A stretch of 63,751 nt of DNA, filler included, from Thraustochytrium aureum (taxonomy: Eukaryota), in the NCBI GenBank assembly GCA_012862495.1. It is 4 parts of 3 records of this genome, joined end to end, with 100 filler letters (N's around TTAATTAATTAA, not from the genome) between each part and the next. Parts side by side here need not be neighbours in the genome. Positions count along the whole stretch, not along the records: positions 5,752 to 35,452 come from BLSG01000103.1; 3 more parts are not named here. One strand, 5' to 3'. Positions 2,636 to 63,184 of the stretch are shown here, piece after piece. Made by a program: the position numbers and the translations under genes. How positions within the stretch are numbered: position 1 is the stretch's first letter; each line of letters starts with the position of its first letter. The notes below the pieces were generated by a model, which was not told where the DNA came from, made no database searches, and was given only the letters and a program-made list of their open reading frames with translations.

Positions 2636-4226
2636 GCGCCTGCTGCTCGCCGCGTTGCTCGCCGCGTTGCGGGTCTGCTCGCATCCATCGGGGAACAAAC
2701 ATACGTGCTCCGCTCCTCCACTGCCCCTCTATTATAGGCCTGTGAAAGGAAGGGCTCACCTCCCACTCGGTCGGACGACAGACCAAAAAAGTGGCGAGGA
2801 TCAAGAGAGGAAAAGGCTAAAGGCCCGTAGTAAGTAGCTACGAGAGTGGAGCGCTAGCTAGCTAGAGAGCGAGTCACTCTCTCGCCCTGTCTTGAGCACG
2901 TTTCTTTTTCCTTTTTTTTCCCGTTTTTGTGTTTTTTTGTGATGCGTTTTATAGAGGGCCAGCAGGGAGGCCAGCCCGCAGGTGGAAAACGTGTACCGGT
3001 ATTGTCAGGCAGAATCAGGGCCATTGTAGAGAGTACTCCTCCTGCTGGTTCAAGGATGCCCCGCTGTTTTCTTCCTTCCAAACCAAAGTTCGCCGTTTGT
3101 CTGCCTCCTTGCCAGTGGTGGGTTCTCTTCTCCACCGCCTCCCTCCCTCACAAAGCCGCGAGAGAGAGTGGGAGAGAAGTGGGCTATCATGGTGAGTTTT
3201 CGAGGCCCTTCTCCCGGGCCTGTTCTGAATGCTCCCGGACCTGTGAGTGGCTCGAGGGCGATAGATAGAGGGNNNNNNNNNNNNNNNNNNNNNNNNNNNN
3301 NNNNNNNNNNNNNNNNNNNNNNNNNNNNNNNNNNNNNNNNNNNNNNNNNNNNNNNNNNNNNNNNNNNNNNNNNNNNNNNNNNNNNNNNNNNNNNNNNNNN
3401 NNNNNNNNNNNNNNNNNNNNNNNNNNNNNNNNNNNNNNNNNNNNNNNNNNNNNNNNNNNNNNNNNNNNNNNNNNNNNNNNNNNNNNNNNNNNNNNNNNNN
3501 NNNNNNNNNNNNNNNNNNNNNNNNNNNNNNNNNNNNNNNNNNNNNNNNNNNNNNNNNNNNNNNNNNNNNNNNNNNNNNNNNNNNNNNNNNNNNNNNNNNN
3601 NNNNNNNNNNNNNNNNNNNNNNNNNNNNNNNNNNNNNNNNNNNNNNNNNNNNNNNNNNNNNNNNNNNNNNNNNNNNNNNNNNNNNNNNNNNNNNNNNNNN
3701 NNNNNNNNNNNNNNNNNNNNNNNNNNNNNNNNNNNNNNNNNNNNNNNNNNNNNNNNNNNNNNNNNNNNNNNNNNNNNNNNNNNNNNNNNNNNNNNNNNNN
3801 NNNNNNNNNNNNNNNNNNNNNNNNNNNNNNNNNNNNNNNNNNNNNNNNNNNNNNNNNNNNNNNNNNNNNNNNNNNNNNNNNNNNNNNNNNNNNNNNNNNN
3901 NNNNNNNNNNNNNNNNNNNNNNNNNNNNNNNNNNNNNNNNNNNNNNNNNNNNNNNNNNNNNNNNNNNNNNNNNNNNNNNNNNNNNNNNNNNNNNNNNNNN
4001 NNNNNNNNNNNNNNNNNNNNNNNNNNNNNNNNNNNNNNNNNNNNNNNNNNNNNNNNNNNNNNNNNNNNNNNNNNNNNNNNNNNNNNNNNNNNNNNNNNNN
4101 NNNNNNNNNNNNNNNNCTAGTACCTTGTGTTGCCTTTTTTTTTTGCCTTCCCCGCCAAGCAGAAGCGTCAAGCCAAAACTCGCACTGCAGCGCTTGTGGC
4201 CCAACTCTTGATGTTGACCAATTCGG

Positions 4227-4271
4227 GCGCATCGATCGCTTATGCGCATCGATCGCTTATGCGCATCGATC
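4227..4271. repeat. 17-bp tandem repeat GCGCATCGATCGCTTAT x2.6
   Basis: Read directly, just downstream of the HRD3 stop. Confidence 0.9.
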
Positions 4272-4348
4272 TATCGCAGACGGACGGAAACCAAATATTC
4301 AACATACTTTTTTGCGCGTGCGCGTCAGTCCAGCTTGTACTTTCCTGG

Positions 4349-5651: not shown

Positions 5652-5695
5652 NNNNNNNNNNNNNNNNNNNNNNNNNNNNNNNNNNNNNNNNNNNN

Positions 5696-5707
5696 TTAAT
5701 TAATTAA
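5696..5707. other. Artificial six-frame-stop scaffold spacer TTAATTAATTAA within Ns
   Basis: The same 12-mer flanked by 44 N on each side occurs three times. Confidence 0.97.
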
Positions 5708-5756
5708 NNNNNNNNNNNNNNNNNNNNNNNNNNNNNNNNNNNNNNNNNNNNCTTTG

Positions 5757-8700
5757 ATGTGGCGTTCAGGCATACATTGTATGCTTGGAATAGGCGGGCG
5801 AACAACTGGAATTCCTTGCCGATCGAATTTGGGCATACATGTATGCCTGAAATGCGTGGCCGGGTTTGATGAAGATACGACCGCTGGCCTCACGACAGAC
5901 TCGGACGACAGACAATCCAGGCAGGACCTTGCGAGGTCCGAACTCACGATCGATCCCTCGCGGCCCGGCACCGGAGGGCGCAGCGTAGTAGAAGGGGCAA
6001 CACCGGGAGCGAGGAAGCCGCCCAACTTTTGCACGACTTTGGGAGAGATGTACGGTGCCAGGGAGGGCTCGGACGGCCCCGCAAGCACCTCGGCTGTGGC
6101 CGCGGCGCCTGTTGGTCGCGCACCGACGGCCCCGGTGCATGAGGCTGAAACAGCGAAGGGAAAGAGGAAAAAGCGACCGAGCTTCGCAAGCAGCTCGTCA
6201 AGCAGCAGCTCATCAAGCAGCGCCTCGAGCGCCAGCGCCGGAAAAAACGAGTTGGCCAGCCCCACAAGAAAATCGTCTGCGTCAGCTGCGACGGCACTGA
6301 GCGACGGCAAGAAAAGCCGGAAGCAGAAGAAGCCAAGAGTAGCCTCCAAGCGCAGCAAGCCCTCCGCGTCGTCGGCGGTGGCCGCAGCCCCTGCAAAAAT
6401 CTGCAATCGGTGTGGGCGTCGGGATCACCAGCGCTCCAACAGCGTGCTGTGCCCGTTCAACAAGAAGTCGCAAGGCGCGCCTGCGCCTGCGCAGCGTGCA
6501 CGTGGGGCCAAGACCAGCGCACCAACCAGCAATGCTTCTGCAGGGCTTACCGAGTGGACGCCGTGCCGGGTGCCTGATGAGTACGTCCTGAGGTTCGCTG
6601 AGGAGTCTCGAAACGAGTTCTTCGTCCCCCGCGTCTCCCAGCAATGCAAAGCTATCGTTGCCAACGTGCAGAGCGAGGCAAACAGCATGTTTCCGGGGAA
6701 CGATGGGCTGCGAAGCCTGACGCCATTTCAAATCTTCATGCTCATCGCCAAAGGTGTCTTGGCCAGATTGGCGCTGTGGACAAGCAAACGCATACGCGCC
6801 GCAGAGAAGGATCAAGCGCCTCTGTCGTTAGGCCAGTTCATGGCCGTATTGGGGGTGTACCTGTGGACGCAGCTTGTCGGAATGAAGTGCGAGCTTATTC
6901 TAGAGTGCTTTGAGAGTAGCGTCGGCATCCCCCTCCCGCTTCGCCAACGTTTCCTTTCAATTGTAAAGCACATCAGCGCTGTCGACCCTGACCTCGCCGG
7001 CCCTCGCGGCGCTGGGTTTGGCGAAACTGGCGACATTGTTCAGAACGTGAGGACGTTTGAGGGGCTACTTTTCAGACGGACTAGGCTTTTGGTTGCTTCC
7101 CGCAACCAAAACATCGTCGTTGAGGACGAACTCGTTGCAACCAAATCGGAGGAGGCCCCAAAGCGCGCGGCGAGCCGCCGAAAGGCCGGCAAAGACGGGA
7201 TCAAGTGTGTCGCTCTGGCCGACGCACTGACTCGTATTATGCTCTGCGTCAAGCACCAGGCGCGTTTGGATGGCAATCAAAGTGCTGTAGCGTCTGAGCT
7301 CTTGAATGAGGCCCACTCCTCGGGAGCAGCAGCTGCTGCTGCTGCTGCGCTCTGCGGGACCGTCCTCTCCGGGGACAGAGGGTACAGCAAAGCGGACCTC
7401 TGGAGCAAAGCCCGCGACTTGGGCGCCGGTTTCTTGATGGTCTCAGACACCTCTGCAAGCCCTTTCACTGCACTTAGCAAGGTATTGGACACTGTGGTCA
7501 AGAAGGAGCGCGCTGTGACGGGCGTTGCCGGCCCAACCAAGGACACAGCGCAGCATAGTGTCCAAAGGGCCAAGGCTGTGGGTATCCACCGGTTCACGGA
7601 GGCGCTCGTCGTCAGAGACGATGCCCAGCTCGGCCGCGAGGTCTTCGGCGCGACCTGCACTTCCCAACGTGATGGGAAGACCGAGGTGATGACAGCCATT
7701 GCGTTCCGCGACTACCAGGCCAAAGCCGCGGACACGCCAAGCCGAGTCGTCCATTTCGTTGAATGCGGAACTGGCCTCGGCGAGAAGCTTCTGAAGACGA
7801 TGTGCATGAGCAAGATGAACATCCCTTCTGGGACCGAGGTTCGCGCGGACCTGCTCTTCTATCCCTGCGAGAAGAAGAGCAAAGCAAAGCTGGTCGTGCG
7901 CGTGGAAAAGGACCTGCGCGATAGAGGCGTGGTCCCTTGCACGTGTTGGCAGCGGAGTGCGGATTGGTTCGTTCTGCGGGCCTTTTGCATTTCGGCAACG
8001 ACAAGTGGCCAGCTCGCGCGAAACGCGCCTGCAGCGCGTGCCCTGCTCATCCAACCAGCAGCTGACAAGGAAAGCGGGCAGGACGAGGTGGACGAGGAAG
8101 GCGGAGAAAGCGATGACGAAGAAGCGATGAACAGTGACGCTAGCGACGACTCTGCACAGCGCGCAAGCGACGGTGGTGTCCATGGCGACTCCGGGGACGA
8201 CGGCGACGGCTGCAGTTCGGACGGCATAAGCGCCGACGGGTGCAACGGAGGCCAGCGCTCCGTCTGGGCTTCGGAAGAATCGAACGGTGAAGGGTGGGAG
8301 AGCCCCTGGGCTGACGAGTCGGCAGGCGATAGCGAAGCCCACGACACGCTCGCAGATGGAGCGAAGACTCTTATGAGGTCGTGGTTCTTTGCCCGCGGGG
8401 CGAGCACACCAGCGACGCGCTCGGGGGCACTGAACGAGGCGAACTTGTTCAAAGCGATCGGGCGGACGGCGTGGTGCGAGGCAATTTTCAGGGTTGGCCT
8501 TGTGGCGATGGAAGACCATCCATACCTGGCGGTTTCGAGTGACGGTATTGCGCGCGTGCGCGCCCCTGGCGCACAGCTGGATGACAAACCTGTGCTCGCC
8601 AGCGTGAGATTCAAGACGCGGTCGGCGCGCACGCCTCTCAAGCGCGCCGCCCGCATTGCAGCAAGGGTTGGGCAGTACTTTTCCTGCACTGTTGGCGACC

Positions 8701-9785
8701 GGGACTGGTGGCGCACGGTTCCGCTAGAGTGCCGTGGCCAAGTTTTGCACCAAGCAATGGTCCTTGGCCTCGACCACGTCCTGTACGTGGAGGGCACCAT
8801 GCAAAGTATGTTATTTGCTTGCCTCGTCGAGGTGCCCAAGCACGCGCGGGACACCTACCGCGGCGCACTCACCAAGTACGGGCCACTGATGGACTGGGCC
8901 CATGACTCCGTATCCGTGGCTGGCCCACCGCCAGTCGCCCCAGCAGCGTTTAGCGCGGTCGAGCGAGAGGTGATTGCTTCGCACATGCGACTGTGGCGTG
9001 CAGTTCGCAAGCACGTGGCAAAGTCCGGGCCGCTCCACCCGATCCGTAGCTTCCACACCCTTGCCCAGGAGATCTGCAATTGTCTGAAAGGTGGAATTGA
9101 CGGCAGCTCGCAGGATGTTGCGGAAATCACGCCGCCGTCTGTGTTTCAACTCAGCCTGCAGCAACAGGTCGCGTTTCGTGGCTTGAAGCAGCTAGTAAGC
9201 AACGCCTTCGTCATCTATCGCACCGTGCGTGCCTGCTCTACGCAAGACGGGCCGTGCTTTCGCTTCACGTCGCTCGAGGGTTTTCGCAGGGGCTGCAACG
9301 AGGTGCTCACCATGAAGGAGTTTACTTTCATCCTGGCCAAAGCCCTTGTCAGAGCAAGCGTGGACACGCAGTACTCCGCCGGAGGGAAGGAAGCCCGAGC
9401 TCCAATGGGACCTGTCGTGGGGCAGGCTCCAAAGGAACCTGCCAACAAAGCCAAGATGACCACGGAAGACGCGCAGCGTATTATCAAGGGCGCGCCGTTC
9501 AGGGTGGCTGCAAAGCTTACTTTCTTCGACGGGGGTCTTGGAAAACGTGTTCGGCTCAACACTGAGCTTTCGCACAGCCTTCAGCCGCTGGGGCAACGCG
9601 AAACTACAGCACAGCGGCGAGTCTCGCGGCAGGGCGTATGCATCGTCTGTGGCGGAAGGGCTTCCCATTCTTGCTCCCTATGTCTCGTGCCGCTCCATGT
9701 CGCTGTCACCGAGGGGCAGAAGACCAACTGCTTCCACAAGTTCCACACCAGAGAGACCGTCCAGGGCACGAAGGAAACAAAATGA
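5757..9785 (+). mobile_element. piggyBac-like DDD transposase with an internal YqaJ/lambda-exonuclease domain, a zinc knuckle and a C-terminal Cys-rich domain (element ends hidden by gaps)
   Basis: CCHC knuckle CNRCGRRDHQRSNSVLC (6402). Transposase motifs VVEDELV (7122), RRKAGKDGIK...LADA, LSGDRGY (7374) and CNCLKGGIDGSSQ (9099; cf. piggyBac YNxxMGGVDxxDQ). CRD CIVC...CSLCLVPLH...CFHKFH (9639-9746). YqaJ motifs QRSADWFVLRAFCISAT (7950), GALNE, HPYLAVSSDG (8541) and QVLHQAMVLGL. Confidence 0.82.
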
Positions 9786-10594
9786 TTTACACGCGTCGCG
9801 CCTCCGCAGCAGACAGCACGCAAAGCGACGTGGCCAAGCAACTCAAACTCTTGATCAATCAAGCTGCTGCGTGTCTTCGTGTACGAGTACTTGTACTTAT
9901 TNNNNNNNNNNNNNNNNNNNNNNNNNNNNNNNNNNNNNNNNNNNNNNNNNNNNNNNNNNNNNNNNNNNNNNNNNNNNNNNNNNNNNNNNNNNNNNNNNNN
10001 NNNNNNNNNNNNNNNNNNNNNNNNNNNNNNNNNNNNNNNNNNNNNNNNGTGTGGTTGGTTGCGCGCCTTGATGTGGTTGTTTAGTTGCTGCCATTGATGG
10101 CGCGCTCCGCGCGCGCCTGGAGGTGGTGGTGCGCAAAGCGGCTTCTGGCGACCGCAGAGCAGAGTCGCTCGATCGGTGCCAACGACAAGGCCATGCATTC
10201 GTGGGTGCGGCGCCTCGCGTGCCTGCGCCGACAACACGCACCGATTGCGCTTGCGGAAGAGGGCAGACATTGCGTGGGCCGATTATCCAACTGTATGAAC
10301 GGTACCGAGGTATAGTTGCCTCTTTGCATGGCCTGTATTGATTCAGTAAATAGCCCTCGCGGAGGCGACAGAACGCGACGCCAGACGCGCTACGTGGACG
10401 CTGCGGGGGCTGCTACTGGTGCTGGTGCTGGTGCTAGTGGCTGCGAAAGAGGATAGCGCGGCTTGGCTGCAGCTGCAGCTGGGGTTGTCGGCTTTCGGTG
10501 TGCTCTGGCGGCATGGCGGACGAATTCGCCGTCGCGGTCGCGGTCGTCGTCGTCGTCCTTGCTGCAGCGGCTGCCACGTGGGCCTCGCGAGGCC

Positions 10595-12036
10595 ATGCAG
10601 GCCATCGCGAGGAGGAATGGGGCAGAGACGGGCGACGCCAAGGTGATGCGCAGGAGGCTGTGCCAAATGGAACGCGCGTTCCAGCGATGGGCGAGTTGGT
10701 ACCACGGTGGCAACAAGGTGGCCATAGCCGTCGGGCTGCAAGGCGAGCATTTGCTTCGGCTCGAGGATCTGGAGCGGGCAGCGAGGGAGATGGAGCGGCG
10801 GCACCCGATGGTTCGCGCCGTTCTGTGCGAGGGCGGCTTCATCGAAGCAGGTCGCGACGACAATCACACTGCGCGTCCTGTTCTGCGTGTTAGCCAGGTC
10901 GAGCGCGAAAATGAAGACTCGTGGGAAGCGGCCTGGCAACGATGCGAAAGCTCGGCGCTAAAGGTCGGGGAAGGGTTCTTCGAAGTCGTCCTCGTAGCAG
11001 GGCCGGCGGCCTCTGGCAGCTGCGAGGTCCTCGTCGTGGGCCACCATCCTGCCTGCGACGCGGATTCTCTGATGCAGCTCGGTCACGAGCTCATCGCGGC
11101 TGCAGCTGGCGTTGCAGAGCGGGACATGAGCCCGCGTCCTTTTGTGCCTGCGCCGACGACGTGCGTGCAGCGGGACCTCCCCAGCTTTTGGCGCGACCGG
11201 CTGCCGGGCTACGTGAGCTACTTTATTTGGGTGCTGTATGTGTCCATGGTGACGAGGGGGCTGAACCCCTCCCGTGCGGCGAACCCTCGAAAAGTCGGCC
11301 TGCTCTGTCCCACAGCGCACCATCGCGCGCGGCTCGACATGGAGACGACTGCCAAACTGCGAGCTTCCGCGCGGGCCCACGGCGTCACCGTGAACGCGGC
11401 GGTGATGGCCGCAGTGGCGCAAGCGATCGTGGACGAAAACGCCAAGGCATCGAGCGTCGCCGACGCCCGAAAGCACACTGTATGTGTCAACTGCACGGTC
11501 AACCTGCGCAAGCGATACTCTGCCTCGAAGGGCCTTTCGAGCAGCGACATTGGCAACCACGCAGTTGGCACCTACGTGGCAGGCCACGTTCAAAGCGGTG
11601 CGACCCAGCGCGCTGGCGCAAGCGCGCTCGCAAGCACGGCGCAGGAGATGGCCCAGGAGCTCGGCAAGTTGCTGTGTGAGCCGCGCCGCATCATGCCACC
11701 CCAGCTGTGGAACTGGCTTGTGTTCCGCGTCATTCCAACAAACGTGGTCGTCCTGGGCTCCACAGTGGCGGTCCTCGGCAATTGGGGCGTCTCGCCGCTT
11801 CCAGCCGAGTACGCAGGCCGCGCGGCAGGCCGAAGCGCATTGTCCGTGCGCTTCATGAGGCCTCTCATCAACTTTAACGTCTTCAACTGCTCGTACGTTG
11901 CGACAACGACCACTGGGGGCTGCTTGGATGTCACTGTGATCGGCTCGCGCCGCGCCTTTGAGAGCGAGCAGCTCGCGGCGCTCTGCAGCAGAGTCACCGC
12001 CAACCTGAGCCTGTTTGCCGCCACACAAGCACCGAC
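10595..12036 (+). CDS. Condensation-domain (PapA5/alcohol acetyltransferase-like) acyltransferase; start 10595 or 10646, stop in gap
   Basis: RRLCQMER, RRHPMVR, HHxxxD motif (GHHPACDADS), RAHGVTVNAAVMAA, VNLRKR...IGN. Confidence 0.8.
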
Positions 12037-34304: not shown

Positions 34305-35496
34305 GCGCTTCGGACCTTCGAACGGTCTTGCGCTCCTCAGCGAGCGACTGGCGGCACGACGTTGAGCCGACCATGAAGCGCGCCTGCGGCTCTGGACACT
34401 CGCCCGACCCTGAGCGCGCGCCTGCTGCTGGGAGGGCTTCCTCGAGGTTAGCCAGCTGCTGCTCTCCCAAGCGGAGGGAGATGACCGGCCAGATCCGACC
34501 TCGGACCTGGAGAGGTGCCCTGACGAACGCCGCGGCCCTCTCGCGGCTTTGTAGCTGTCGCTGTACGCGCGAGCACACGCTGCGCTCTGCCGCTGCGGCT
34601 GGGCTGCGGCGGCCTGTCTGACTCTAGAAGGACGCAAGGCCTGGCGAAGCATAGGGCTCTGGAGCGCGCCGCGTAGAGCTCGCTGACTTGCTCGCTGGGC
34701 GCTGTCGCCGGTGGCTCGACGGGCGTGCTGCTTGCAGCCAGGACGAATCGCGCAGGTCGCTGCCGCCGGATGTCTCGCTCAGCGCGATGAAGAGGCGGCC
34801 GGCTTGGGTTTTTCGCGATAGAGTTGTGTGAGGTCAAAACCTGGCCGCTCGGCGGCGTGGCACTGGCGCTCCAGCATGCAGCCTCCGACCGCAGCGCGCT
34901 GGGAGGGCGACCGCTTGCGGCTGACGCTGCCAGGCAGAGGCCCGATGGCCGCCAACACGAGGCCATGCATGAAGGCCGTTGCTACCCTGCCGCTTGTCCA
35001 CTTCATGGGGCGTCAACGAAAAGCGATGATATGATATCCAAGCGCCACGTTTCCAGGCCAGCCAAGAGCCGCATCGCCACGCGTCCCGCGGCGGCCTCCG
35101 GCATCGCCCCGAGCGAGCTCAACCGGCGCCAGCTGTCCACCCACCCGGCAACAGTTGCAACCAAAATGCAGCATCGAGGCGAGTCGCAGCGGCAGATAGC
35201 CAGGCAGGTCTGCGGTGCCCACCGTTGCCAGCGCGGGCCGGCCGGCCGGCGCCGCGTCGCTCGCTGCTCCGCGCTCGATGCGGGCCAAACTAGTTGCTCC
35301 ATGATCGTAATCATGTCACATGTTCGGATAGAATCTCGCCTGTGGCATGGCATTTCAACCTTGAAGTTGCGAAAACACGCCCAGACCCGGACGCGAAGTC
35401 GGCGGCGCTCGGCCAAAGGACGCCTGCGCCCGGCACTGACTCGGTCGCGGGGNNNNNNNNNNNNNNNNNNNNNNNNNNNNNNNNNNNNNNNNNNNN

Positions 35497-35508
35497 TTAA
35501 TTAATTAA
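35497..35508. other. Artificial scaffold spacer
   Basis: TTAATTAATTAA within Ns. Confidence 0.97.
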
Positions 35509-35552
35509 NNNNNNNNNNNNNNNNNNNNNNNNNNNNNNNNNNNNNNNNNNNN

Positions 35553-40693: not shown

Positions 40694-43600
40694 TGACGTA
40701 CGGAAAGTGCATGTCGTCCACCCGCGCGGAAAAGACCCCAACGCGAGTCCCCGCCTTGCGGTCGGGGTAGTTTTCGTACGGGCCGCGCCCGAGGTACTCG
40801 ACTTGGTCGTACTCGCCCGGCAGGACCAGTTCCATGCCCACGCGCGGCAGCGAATCAGTACCCTTTTGCGTTGCAGGGGCTGCGGTGACAGTCACGTCGA
40901 GCAGTACGGATTCAGCACAAAACGTGTACAGCGTCTCCGTTGCAAAGCGCAGCGCACCATTATACTTGTGGTCTTCGTGCACGCGGATGACGACCGAGCC
41001 CGTTTTCTCGTTGTCCCGATCGATCGATACCTTGGTCGTGAGCGGCACGAGCGCGTCGAGGCCGAGATTGCGCCAGTGCCCGTTGAACGAGGTCTGGCTC
41101 CTGCTCACGAACGGCTTGAGCAGCTTGTTGGGCAGCATCGAGTCCAGGCCGCCGAGGTCGTTGTCGGTGGGCGCTCGGAAGAAGCAGTGCTTGAGCCCGT
41201 GCGCCGCGAGCACGAGCTCCTCGCCCCCGGAACTGCTCATCGACGCCACGGCGCCCGACGCGATGTCAAAGTCGACCACATACGTCTTGCCCTCCAGCCG
41301 CAGGAGCCGGCCGCCGTCGAGGTTGGTCGTCTTGAGTGGGGACGTGTTCGCCATGGCGAGCTTCTCCGCGTCTTCGTAGCTGGCCCGCACTTTGCTGAGC
41401 GGATTGGGGTCGAGGGCAAACGACTGGCTTGCGACGAGGTGGCCCTTCGGCGCGTACGGGAGGTCGGTGGCGAGGACCATGCGGACCTGCAGCGTGGCGA
41501 GGCCCGTGCTGGTCGCGACCTCGCTCGACTTTGCCCTGGCCTGCTCGAGCACGAGCGAGTACGTGCGCGCGCCCGCGTCCACGACAGAGAGCTTGCACGG
41601 CCCGGACGCCGCTGGGTCCGCAGAGGCAACCCCAAACACGACGTACTCGAACGCGACCTGCTCTACAAGCGGGGCGTGCGGGTAAAACTCGAGCTGCATC
41701 TCAAAGGAGGCGTCGCCCCCCTGGCTCTCATAGTCAAAGGCAAACTCGACGGGCTGCATGAGGAACTTGGCCTCGTGCATGGCCGGTGGGCGTGCGGTCG
41801 GGGANNNNNNNNNNNNNNNNNNNNNNNNNNNNNNNNNNNNNNNNNNNNNNNNNNNNNNNNNNNNNNNNNNNNNNNNNNNNNNNNNNNNNNNNNNNNNNNN
41901 NNNNNNNNNNNNNNNNNNNNNNNNNNNNNNNNNNNNNNNNNNNNNNNNNNNNNNNNNNNNNNNNNNNNNNNNNNNNNNNNNNNNNNNNNNNNNNNNNNNN
42001 NNNNNNNNNNNNNNNNNNNNNNNNNNNNNNNNNNNNNNNNTAGCCCCACGCACCGTTCGCAAAGCCCGGTAGGGAGAGCCCTTGGTCCGCAAAGTCCCAA
42101 ATGAAGCCGCCCTGCATCTTCGGGTGCGCCTTGGAGCGAAATAGCTTCCAATACAAGTGCAGGTTGCCGCTGCTGTTGCCCATCGCGTGCGCATACTCGC
42201 ACAGAATCATAGGGCGAGCGCGGTCCGAGCCCGACGCCGCGGTAGTTTTCTGGTGGATCTCGGCCATAAGAAGCGGCGAGTCGTACATGGGACAAACAAT
42301 GTCGGTGCAGTGCGGGTCGCAGCCATCGCCCATAAGCATCGGCGAGTCGCCGCCGTGGATTCCGCCCTCGTACTGCAGCGTGCGGGTCGGGTCGACCTGG
42401 CGCACCCAGTCCGCACATGCGCGCATGTTTGGCCCGCACCCTGACTCGTTGCCGAGCGACCAGCCAATTATGCTGGGGTGATTGCGCGAGCGCCGCACGC
42501 ACGCCTGCACCCGCGCCATGAAGGCGCCGGCCCAGTGCGAGTCGCACTGCAACAGCGAGAGGTGCGCCACCTTGGCGAACCCGTGCGTTTCGATGTTGGC
42601 CTCGTCGATGAGGAAGAGGCCATACTCGTCGCACAGTTCGTACCAGCGGTGGACGCTCGGGTAGTGGCAGTTGCGGACGGCGTTAAAGTTGAACTGCTTG
42701 AGGAGCTTGATGTCCTTGATCATCTGCGCTTCGTGCATCACCTTGCCGCTCTCGGGCTCCCACTCGTGCCTATTGATCCCGCAAACCAGGATCGGCTCGC
42801 CGTTGACGCGGACCTGCGCGTCCACGATCTCCACCGTCCTGATGCCCACGCGCGTGGCCTCGATCTGGCGCACCACGGCGCTGGCGCCGCCGGCAAGGAC
42901 TGCGTCCACAGTCCCCTCCACCGCCTCAACCACCAGTGTGTACAGGTACGGGCGCTCCACGCCCCAGAGGGTCGGGTTTTCAACGCGGAGCGCTGCAGTG
43001 GCGCAGAACGCCGGCTGCGCGAGCGTCTCGTTGCCAAACTCTGCGCACAAGGCGACCTGCGCGGCGCTCGAGGCAACCAGGCGCTCCTCTGCGTCAAAGA
43101 GCGACGCGCGAATCACCGTGCCGCGCTCCATTGTCTCTGGCGAGTCGTTGGTCTTGACGTGCACGGTGACAGAGCCGCCTGCTCCTTCCTCGGTGAGGCT
43201 TGTTTCGACAAAGTAGTCGACGATTCCGCCGTGCCGGGGCCTGCACGAGAGCTCGACGTCGCGGAAGACGCCGCTGAGCCACCACTGGTCCTGGTCTTCC
43301 ATGTACGAGCCGTCCGTCCAGCGGTAGACAATGAGCGTGAGCAGGTTTTGGCCCTCGCGCAGGTTGGCGTCGGAGATTTTCACTTCCGTCTCGGTCATGG
43401 AGTCCTGGCCGTACCCAACGTGGGCCCCGTTCACAAAAATGTCGACGCCTGCGCCTGCCCCATGGAGAATGAGAAAGACGTCGCGCTCCCCCTTGTCGAG
43501 GGCGCTGACCCAGCTGGCGGGAACGCTAAACTCGATCCTGTAGCAGCCCGTCGGGTTGTCGGCCTTGGGGACGCTCGTTGTCAGCGGTGTGAGTCGCTTC

Positions 43601-44004
43601 CACGGGAACGTGATGTTGGTGTAGATGGGCGGGTCCACCTCGGGGTACTTGAACTGCCAGTTGCTCGGGATTTCGGTCTCGTCCCAGTTCGCAAACCCGT
43701 CCTCCTCGGCCGTGCTTGGCGCCGTGACCTGGTCCACGGGGCAGCTCGCCGGGTTGGAGAACAGCCGAAACCTGCAGTTGGTCGGGGCTTCGGCTCGCGC
43801 CACAAACTTCACCCACTCTGTCTCTCCGCGCGCCGCGCTGAGCGCTGCGAACGCGTCCTTGGTGTCTTCCAGTAGCCTGAGCGGGGCATGATGCTCCACG
43901 CCATTCACATAGACCACCCTCGGATCCTGCCAGTGCTCAAGCCGGCCCGTCAGCACGTGCTTGACCGCGTTGATCACCTTGAGGTACCCGGTCTTCACGC
44001 CCAT
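40694..44004 (-). CDS. GH2 beta-galactosidase (LacZ-like); two gaps, 3' end hidden
   Basis: YMEDQDQWWLSGVFRDV, NFNAVRNCHYP, DEANIETHG, WSLGNESG (acid/base), LCEYAHAMGNS (nucleophile), GGFIWDFADQG, RAPTDND, GRGPYENYPDRK. Confidence 0.96.
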
Positions 44005-62468: not shown

Positions 62469-62512
62469 NNNNNNNNNNNNNNNNNNNNNNNNNNNNNNNN
62501 NNNNNNNNNNNN

Positions 62513-62524
62513 TTAATTAATTAA
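62513..62524. other. Artificial scaffold spacer
   Basis: TTAATTAATTAA within Ns. Confidence 0.97.
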
Positions 62525-62737
62525 NNNNNNNNNNNNNNNNNNNNNNNNNNNNNNNNNNNNNNNNNNNNCTCGTGCTACAAACACCTTGGCGTTTAAATGG
62601 CGCTCCAATGGTCAAGCGATGAAAACTAGGAGCACTTGCAGACCCAGAACGCCATCGTGCTCGAGCAACCCCAGCGCCGTCCTGCAGCCGACACATTTCC
62701 CCATACGGCGACAAAAGTTCCTGTACGCTGCCCAATC

Positions 62738-63184
62738 ATGCGTAGCGCCTACTTCCTCGTTTTGGCGCTCAGCAACGTGCTCAGCGCTTTTGCGGGCTGC
62801 TGTGACGATGTTTGCGGATATGGAAACACCTGCGTCGGGCAGTGCGTACTTGGTGTAGTGCAGTGTTCGTGCTCCGGGTCGTGCTCCGGATCGTATACGC
62901 AGTGCGTCGAATACGCCTGTGGGCCTCAAAGTAGCAGTGGTATGTGCTTCGGAGGAGATGGCTGCAACTGCATTGGAGGCAATGTGGGCGAAATGTGCCT
63001 CTTGACGTTTATCGGTTTGCTTGCGGCTATTGCAATTGTGGCGAGTATCTCGTGCTGCTGCATTGGCCTGTGCGGGCCGCGATTTCAATTCAATCGCACT
63101 GTCGTTACCCAGCCGTCCACTCAAGTCCAAGCGCCTGCGACGGCGCAGCCTGTGGCACAAAAGGCAGACCCGAACAGCGTCTGA
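62738..63184 (+). CDS. Small Cys-rich single-pass membrane protein (Shisa-like architecture)
   Basis: Signal peptide MRSAYFLVLALSNVLSAFA, Cys-rich ectodomain, TM helix ending in CCC, Pro/Gln/Thr tail. Confidence 0.75.
   Translation: MRSAYFLVLALSNVLSAFAGCCDDVCGYGNTCVGQCVLGVVQCSCSGSCSGSYTQCVEYACGPQSSSGMCFGGDGCNCIGGNVGEMCLLTFIGLLAAIAIVASISCCCIGLCGPRFQFNRTVVTQPSTQVQAPATAQPVAQKADPNSV

Follow-up and report, generated by a model that had tools for sequence, protein, structure and literature searches.

piggyBac transposons are valued for excision that leaves no trace, and they gain no copy at the donor site. Elements of this superfamily carry terminal inverted repeats of 12-19 bp and duplicate a 4-base target, TTAA or, rarely, ATAT or ATAA. 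Several piggyBac genes have been domesticated, among them those encoding the Paramecium PiggyMac-like proteins. The host genes PGBD1-5 and KOBUTA likewise combine an open frame and purifying selection with an altered DDD triad, and the main text of the survey that covers them contains no mention of exonuclease, YqaJ or nuclease (PMC5381638). Lambda-type exonucleases accompany other eukaryotic DNA transposons. KolobokE couples a DDD/E transposase to a lambda-exonuclease-like nuclease that, according to the available part of its description, lies downstream of the core of a Kolobok transposase with a C/DxxH signature (PMC9587614). ISL2EU carries a YqaJ exonuclease on a separate ORF beside a PIF/Harbinger-related transposase with a THAP domain, again as given in the available part of the source (PMC4122938).

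Here, we describe a locus in a 63,751-nucleotide stretch of Thraustochytrium aureum DNA (the window) at which a predicted lambda-type exonuclease is nested inside a piggyBac-like transposase core. Within the literature searched, only the nesting appears to be new; pairing of such exonucleases with other transposases outside the core is already documented for KolobokE and ISL2EU. The uninterrupted ORF of more than 1340 aa reported in the initial annotation holds: positions 5757-9785 (+) form a single frame of 1342 codons with zero stops (Table 1). The motifs and the domain order were all located where that annotation had placed them, except for the residue identities at D1 and xFK, and its residue numbers of about 457, 541 and 1116 are corrected to 456 (D1), 540 (D2) and 1115 (D3). 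The ORF starts only 5 bases past a joint composed of 44 N, TTAATTAATTAA and 44 N. Because this joint is artificial, the gene upstream of it is no true neighbour, and because the ORF begins so close to it, the element ends are not assessable from the window.

Table 1. Features of the transposase-exonuclease locus (positions in the window)
Feature	Position	Strand	Basis
Artificial scaffold joint, not biology	5652..5751	.	100-base linker recurs at 35453 and 62469
In-frame leader, probably non-coding	5757..6047	+	Codons 1-97
Likely CDS, piggyBac-like transposase with nested exonuclease, ~1245 aa	6048..9785	+	Predicted start codon
Zinc-knuckle-like C-x2-C-x4-H-x7-C in basic, low-complexity N-terminus	6402..6452	+	Read from sequence
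Helical N-terminal half, piggyBac dimerisation/DNA-binding domain	6648..7091	+	6x67 structural alignment, pLDDT mostly 75-90
Catalytic D1 column, Glu456	7122..7124	+	Asp 20, Asn 2, Glu 0 of 22 relatives
Catalytic D2, Asp540, DRGY, intact	7374..7376	+	Asp in 24/26 relatives
Lambda/YqaJ-type PD-(D/E)xK exonuclease, residues 723-1078, between D2 and D3	7923..8990	+	Structure match and family profile
Acidic disordered loop, ~75-100 residues, inside exonuclease domain	8097..8324	+	pLDDT <50
Exonuclease Asp929, equivalent by motif to lambda D119, intact	8541..8543	+	Asp in 46/47 relatives
Exonuclease E-x-K, R951-F-K953, metal-binding Glu lost	8607..8615	+	Glu in 39/42 relatives
Cys1107 in piggyBac Y439 column (hairpin contact)	9075..9077	+	Tyr in 14/16 relatives and sister
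Catalytic D3, Asp1115, KGGID, intact	9099..9101	+	Motif and relatives
C-terminal cysteine-rich domain	9639..9746	+	Conserved Cys/His and family profile, by sequence

The Pfam match and the structural model both point to membership of the piggyBac-like transposase family. Residues 322-518 match DDE_Tnp_1_7 (PF13843; E 9e-6, 25.6 bits, above the 22.4-bit cut-off), and a search of the PDB by sequence gave no relevant match. An AlphaFold model built on a 66-row alignment (pLDDT 71; a single-sequence fold with pLDDT 36 was set aside) aligns over residues 298-1205 with the Trichoplusia ni piggyBac transposase 6x67 (Z 22.6, rmsd 4.0, 367 aligned residues), starting with residue 298 at chain residue 117, and reaches Z 20.5 with piggyBat 9c0f. 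The RNase H-like halves postulated initially were therefore recovered by profile and by structure. The structure search spanned 48,161 chains, with piggyBac and lambda exonuclease each the best of its own kind; the next kind of transposase was Tn5, at Z 13.6. Shared with piggyBac and piggyBat are the DNA-binding and catalytic fold, the D-D-D order, Y-N-x-x-x-G-G-x-D before D3 and the Cys-rich domain. Identity to piggyBac is only ~11%, however, the window copy reads E456/D540/D1115 in place of three aspartates, and where piggyBac has a small beta-stranded insertion domain of 60 residues and three strands, it has a whole exonuclease segment of 350 residues. The D2-D3 distance is 575 residues here, 454-544 in seven relatives and 101 in T. 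ni piggyBac. The Cys-rich domain scores 35 bits with a family profile versus 6.1 for shuffles, and its residues are kept in most relatives (C1295 9/9, C1298 10/10, C1325 7/8, H1330 8/8). Val1315, a Cys in the family, was rejected as a loss: His1314 can substitute, the relative L058 also reads L-H-V, and the sister copy is unchanged there among the differences listed. L058 also has a motif similar to the zinc knuckle.

The modelled insert matches lambda exonuclease 3sm4 (Z 14.9, rmsd 4.0, 209 of 229 residues); four lambda exonuclease entries lie at Z 14.4-14.9 and LHK-Exo at Z 13.6. With lambda exonuclease (3sm4, 1avq), YqaJ (PF09588) and LHK-Exo it shares the fold and the motif order Q..W...R, E, D, E-x-K, Q. 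It differs from lambda exonuclease in its position inside a transposase, in the long acidic loop and in the Arg that replaces the Glu of E-x-K. Most relatives are without a loop at that place, and the sister copy spans it too. W737 (41/41 relatives) and R741 (35/42) correspond by motif to lambda W24 and R28. The proposed YqaJ assignment stood in part: Pfam YqaJ does not match the window copy, but it matches 32 of the 66 aligned rows, and a profile made from the segments of 51 relatives, window protein excluded, gives the window copy 134.6 bits against at most 2.7 over 200 shuffles. Apart from this family profile, the only profile to match the insert was the RecE-like phrog_434 (E 0.02), lambda exonuclease itself had no detectable sequence score (1.3 bits), and tblastn of the insert against phages gave no match. 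Atlas features of the insert point to YqaJ clusters at 0.84, a mere lead. In the model, the piggyBac fold is complete on either side of the insert and closes around it, in agreement with the expectation that the exonuclease is looped out between the halves. Fold, family profile and seven relatives bear out a YqaJ-type exonuclease inside the transposase core, predicted to sit where piggyBac has its small insertion domain. It lies before D3 of a piggyBac-like fold, unlike in KolobokE, to which the locus does not conform. No annealing partner for the exonuclease was seen.

A motif scan of metagenomes uncovered a family with the same design. Seven relatives span D2 to D3, all with the same insert at 20-28% identity, and six of them keep D2, D3 and all seven scored exonuclease residues, which suggests, from sequence, that the family is selected for both enzymes. 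The three catalytic aspartates are present in L072, L083, P0004, P0005 and P0006; L083/P0002, P0004, P0005 and P0006 are intact. The family range given here and the closer relatives are under-sampled. Word-based searches for homologues of the window protein gave no scoring match among 7990 and 7993 candidates. Peptide-pattern scans with this protein returned 24 metagenome and 7 viral-contig matches, and one with P0004 returned 2 in viral contigs, none of them a relative; six loci from a motif scan of viral contigs were likewise rejected as chance. In the single copy of L083, the ORF is flanked by a 28-nt inverted pair that matches at 93%; beyond it, CCCTA occurs on either side, with ATAA and ATAT outside these CCCTA ends. 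The family looks like a distinct piggyBac-like transposon lineage, and no description of the nested fusion was found in the published literature searched, so that the novelty considered at the outset stands within this scope.

The window copy itself is likely unable to cut DNA, as judged from its residues. The codon at 7122, annotated as the D1 motif, occupies the catalytic column but encodes Glu; the sequencing run X1 also reads Glu, and the sister copy, 88% identical, reads Asp. In T. ni piggyBac, one assay recorded zero excision for D268E, from which Asp was concluded to be required (PMC2533014). In the xFK element taken earlier for a YqaJ motif, Arg951 stands where the family has a metal-binding Glu; its letters are confirmed by contigs of runs X1, X2 and X3. 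By motif equivalence to the PD-(D/E)xK metal site (D119, E129, K131), D929 and K953 are kept and the Glu is replaced; in lambda exonuclease, E129 binds the catalytic metal (PMC6199318). The Glu-to-Arg replacement could stem from a one-base slip with the frame preserved, as it ranks first among 1608 two-codon windows (score 15.5, next 13.1). Cys1107 sits 8 residues before D3, as Y439 does before D447, and M887T alters a residue that is Met in 48/50 relatives; the sister keeps both Tyr and Met. Because D1 is Glu and the Glu of E-x-K is Arg, the working two-nuclease enzyme envisaged initially is unsupported for the window copy.

It is intriguing to propose that the host retained this disarmed copy in a DNA-binding role, a reading to which we give an even chance. 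The core runs for at least 1,245 codons without a stop, whereas neutral decay would be expected to bring about 9-11 stops alongside 3-4 conserved losses over 39-43 non-synonymous sites; this test rests on 2-4 events, and at the lower 95% bound P(no stop) is 0.05-0.18. Among the differences listed, 23 of 50 changed codons are synonymous against the sister (24% expected, p 0.0006). Run X1, from a different study than X2-X4, carries the same insertion beside the same gene as a 99.5%-identical variant, and 7 of 12 listed differences to it are synonymous (p 0.012-0.039). The core differs by 0.40%, against 1.1% for the 3' intergenic DNA taken together with the 5' piece (p 0.027); the 5' piece overlaps the likely N-terminus. 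The absence of stops together with the synonymous lean favours host retention over recent decay. Against retention, the synonymous excess relative to the sister may reflect past time as an active element, two conserved positions are altered in the sister as well (K463R, S883N), and the X1 variant differs again at residue 887, to Pro. Alternatively, the copy died recently and decays neutrally, without function, its catalytic losses being due to chance and a stop not yet acquired. This is a serious contender, though on balance unlikely. It would account for four clear losses, at sites where the sister keeps Asp, Met and Tyr, and open but dead copies do exist: another relative, L016, has lost D3 and the exonuclease Glu while its frame stays open for 1151 codons. 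The upper end of P(no stop) above, 0.18, leaves room for it, and run X1 also contains contigs of more distant family members, which points to an abundance of such copies in the genome or community. The point estimate of 9-14 expected stops, the synonymous lean of between-strain variants and the possible frame-preserving origin of Arg951 speak against it. The initial choice between a distinct lineage and a domesticated gene appears to apply partly on both sides, the family looking like the transposon lineage and the window copy like a retained, disarmed descendant.

In intact relatives, excision would proceed through hairpins, as in piggyBac. The exonuclease, in the place of the insertion domain that lines the flank/target DNA channel in piggyBac, would then resect the 5'-phosphorylated donor ends. 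Resection would block seamless rejoining, so that the element would be copied back from the sister chromatid or homologue and cut-and-paste would become copy gain. Lambda exonuclease acts as a trimer and piggyBac as a dimer, which counts against this model. The window copy still has the dimer and DNA-binding helices, the Cys-rich domain and the residues of the 5'-phosphate pocket, so that it would attach to element ends or form dimers with the sister family's active transposase, thereby dampening or scaffolding it. Extended further, a widespread protist lineage would resect its own donor breaks for copy-back, hosts would repeatedly tame copies, and this locus would control the active sister family; we regard this as a doubtful conjecture. 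Instead of donor resection, the exonuclease of the family could trim 4-base 5' flaps after hairpin opening or prime homology-assisted insertion, which we consider rather improbable. piggyBac ends do bear 4-nt 5' overhangs once the hairpin is opened (PMC7351741), and the two exonuclease domains of a dimer, while no processive trimeric ring, would suffice for short trimming. However, ordinary piggyBac needs no such domain, and the best structural matches are double-strand-end exonucleases (lambda, LHK-Exo).

There is a small chance that the window copy remains fully or partly active as a transposase that tolerates Glu at D1, with an exonuclease that is dispensable or only binds ends. The frame is intact, as are D2, D3 and the Cys-rich domain, Glu retains the charge, and a second assay column gives a non-zero value for T. 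ni D268E (PMC2533014). Yet Glu at D1 occurs in none of 22 relatives, Y1107C and M887T alter further near-invariant sites, and contig depth in X1, a weak measure, stays level at ~5-6 across the ORF and its flanking gene, which gives no hint of numerous identical copies. Neither inverted ends nor TTAA were found on the 3' side: around the ORF, whose 5' side is cut by the joint and whose 3' side meets an N-run, there is no inverted pair of at least 12 nt with at most 1 mismatch, and TTAA is absent between 5752 and 11873; the 5' end of the element and the target site fall outside the window. Accidental nesting, whether by in-frame insertion of an exonuclease gene or element, for which ISL2EU with its separate YqaJ ORF shows mobile donors (PMC4122938, available part), or by assembly chimerism, is scarcely credible and is refuted by the architecture common to the relatives, besides the overlap of contigs from the independent run X1 across the ORF and the closure of the modelled fold.

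With this lineage, it can be asked in a single protein whether a transposase is able to select the host repair pathway, and why several unrelated eukaryotic transposons such as KolobokE and ISL2EU carry such an exonuclease. The accommodation of an enzyme insert of 350 residues by the piggyBac core is useful for engineering. The window copy is a candidate domestication event unsuited to activity assays, for which the intact relatives are better suited.

No second copy was found within the window; a weak match at 63042 was rejected as a Cys-rich unrelated ORF. Contigs of X2-X4, which may be RNA runs, cover the ORF and leave 9742-10371 uncovered, a gap that carries no meaning. Codons 1-97 are probably non-coding, with the ATG at 6048 as the true start. 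The leader has the lowest GC3 in the ORF (0.58; remainder 0.63-0.76), contains a 2-base insertion after 5892 in the X1 variant, and carries a perfect 13-nt inverted repeat (5765-5777/5839-5851).

The predicted fold indicates that the gene is a real variant of the piggyBac type, working like piggyBac by its fold. The initial annotation had proposed a piggyBac-like transposase with a YqaJ/lambda exonuclease inside its core and had suggested AlphaFold as a check; the proposal is supported by an AlphaFold2 model of residues 282-1342 built with a 66-row alignment, A3 (pLDDT 71, pTM 0.64; exonuclease part mostly >90 pLDDT, D1-D2 linker and acidic loop <50). In Foldseek the top match was piggyBac (E 7e-4), with lambda exonuclease in fourth place, and a structure search against viral models returned YqaJ proteins. 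VIA-align matched residues 298-1205 to chain 117-518 of piggyBac 6x67 (Z 22.6, rmsd 4.0, 367 aligned; piggyBat, Z 20.5) and residues 723-1078 to lambda exonuclease (Z 14.9, rmsd 4.0, 209 aligned), and a search over 48,161 chains ranked the matches alike. Given these two matches, the modelled piggyBac fold is closed around a complete exonuclease, which is looped out. Equivalences of catalytic residues were taken from motifs and alignment.

Word-based searches with the window protein found no relatives. The degenerate pattern Q-R-x-A-D-W-F-x-L-R recovered at least 120 metagenome loci, of which 15 among those listed, some redundant, resemble the window protein beyond the motif (E 0.001 or better), as do none of the six viral loci with the pattern. 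An 11-row profile found 54 proteins among 7993 candidates; A3 combines the window core with translations of 12 loci and all but one of the proteins (53), the exception being P0002, a duplicate of metagenome locus L083. Pfam matches among the 66 rows were YqaJ in 32, DDE_Tnp_1_7 in 10 and DDE_Tnp_1 in nine. Because the exonuclease motif was used to find relatives, exonuclease-free members cannot show up in this sample. Nine rows carry letters at both catalytic Asp columns D2 and D3, and seven relatives were left once protein P0008 was dropped for a misaligned tail in the D3 column. The D2-D3 spacing is 454-544 in these seven, 575 in the window protein and 101 in T. ni. All but one keep D2, D3 and all seven scored exonuclease residues; the exception, locus L016, has lost both D3 and the exonuclease Glu and is thereby another candidate for a disarmed family member. 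In a tree of the exonuclease region (48 of the 66 rows), the window protein forms a long branch within a seven-row group (100/100; with L126, L120, L058, L016, L072 and L123) that stands apart from the other 41 rows, and its closest relative is L126 (49% identity over 111 columns). Acidic loops of about 80 residues occur in the exonucleases of L072 and L016 at a different site than in the window protein, and the domain thus accepts such loops at two sites. The ORF of L083 is bracketed by a 28-nt inverted pair, with CCCTA further out and flanking ATAA and ATAT, both given as rare piggyBac sites in the part of PMC5381638 consulted. In this one copy, the ends fit a mobile family, and L083, apparently complete and intact, is the best candidate among family members for assays.

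PiggyBacA and piggyBacX are labels of piggyBac-related groups; the latter name did not occur in the literature found on this subject. No description of a piggyBac/exonuclease fusion was found in the literature searched, a scope outside which subscription journals and Repbase lay. Nor do the portions consulted of PMC4122938, PMC9587614, PMC6431247, PMC7351741, PMC3424549 and PMC5381638 describe one, although such sequences might be present in the supplements to PMC5381638 and PMC9587614. As the annotation had stated, the exonuclease of ISL2EU is a second ORF (PMC4122938, in part), whereas here it lies in the same ORF, within the transposase core. KolobokE carries a lambda-like nuclease downstream of its Kolobok transposase (PMC9587614, in part), again unlike the nested arrangement. 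The family as a whole differs from piggyBac in having an exonuclease instead of the insertion domain, and the window protein, despite its piggyBac-like fold, has Glu at D1 of the three-Asp triad. The architecture is striking and open to test, but the window copy itself is disarmed and lacks its ends.

The codon at 7122, annotated as the D1 motif, encodes Glu456, where 20 of 22 relatives have Asp, two Asn and none Glu. Arg951 occupies the E-x-K position, which is Glu in 39/42 relatives; with both losses, the two-nuclease enzyme proposed initially is not supported for this copy. Thr887 replaces a Met kept in 48/50 relatives, and Cys1107 a Tyr kept in 14/16. Sequencing errors are excluded for Glu456 and Arg951, because contigs of run X1 agree with the window at 7122-7124 and those of runs X1, X2 and X3 at 8607-8609. 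In the excerpts consulted, T. ni D268E gave zero excision in one assay and a non-zero figure in the second assay column, the authors regarding Asp as required (PMC2533014), piggyBac Y439 makes a hairpin contact (PMC7351741), and E129 of lambda exonuclease is a ligand of the catalytic metal (PMC6199318). Read one base upstream, the R-F pair at the E-x-K site becomes E-I (best of 1608 windows, though at 15.5 not far above the next, 13.1), and Arg951 possibly arose by a local frame-keeping slip.

Nine contig pieces from the same runs are 87-91% identical to the ORF; this sister sequence reads Asp456, Val467, Met887 and Tyr1107. The variant is confined to the ORF; a second copy is weakly favoured over a related species, since the neighbouring gene in X1 shows no comparable variant. 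Three more distant X1 contigs are similar at conserved motifs only. Over 39-43 non-synonymous sites (about 85 codons, sister copy fully listed), the window copy lost 3-4 conserved residues and the sister two. Among the differences listed, 23 of 50 changed codons between them are synonymous (24% expected; rough dN/dS 0.37), as are 7 of 12 between the window and the 99.5%-identical X1 version. We give retention of the window copy by the host about an even chance. That it is a recently decayed transposon copy appears less probable: neutral decay at that rate predicts 9-11 stops in 1245 codons and none is present, but at the lower confidence bound the chance of zero stops is 0.05-0.18. Residual activity is improbable.

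Intact family members would excise through hairpins of the piggyBac type. In piggyBac, target and flank DNA occupy a channel lined by the insertion domain. Residues W, R and T/S-x-T are kept across the family and match lambda W24 and R28, which serve as a 5'-phosphate pocket. The simplest predicted use of the nested exonuclease is resection of donor ends, which would shift repair from seamless joining to copying a template still carrying the element; the main rival is that it would trim flaps. The window copy may be a non-cutting protein that binds ends or partners another protein, for which Paramecium PiggyMac-like proteins are an analogue.

The single long ORF of the annotation was recovered, with 1342 codons without a stop at 5757-9785 and all quoted motifs. 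It starts 5 bases into its scaffold, as the 100 bases 5' of it are an artificial joint; gene neighbourhoods spanning the three joints are not real, because the window consists of four joined scaffolds. The true start codon probably lies at 6048 (about 1245 aa): upstream of it, two extra bases follow 5892 in X1, and GC3 is at its lowest over the first 100 codons, which also contain a 13-nt inverted repeat. A single X1 contig runs from the end of the ORF into the acyltransferase-like gene that lies downstream in the window too, and the insertion is thus common to samples of two studies. The source is an intron-poor eukaryote (G+C ~60%) with genes for ARIH, COG4, PDI, tubulin, SEL1 and ornithine decarboxylase.

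Features of the window and of two metagenome relatives
Feature	Position	Details
Artificial 100-base linkers, identical	5652-5751, 35453-35552, 62469-62568	joints of the four scaffolds
Short palindromic repeats	4211-4280	ATCGAT / ATGCGCAT units, just past end of SEL1-repeat gene
PapA_C / condensation-type acyltransferase-like gene	10595-12036 (+)	intronless, directly downstream of transposase; Pfam PF16911, E 1e-8
GH2 beta-galactosidase, LacZ-like	40698-44004 (-)	two pieces either side of N-run
Small ORF	62738-63184 (+)	cysteine-rich, signal-like start, hydrophobic stretch; Pfam match not found
Apparently complete, intact element	L083:300-5420	about 5.1 kb; inverted subterminal repeats; N-terminal Cys/His-rich region, PHD-like by eye
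1151-codon open frame	L016:3198-6653 (+)	D3 and exonuclease Glu gone; adjoins tandem-repeat tract 2551-2780
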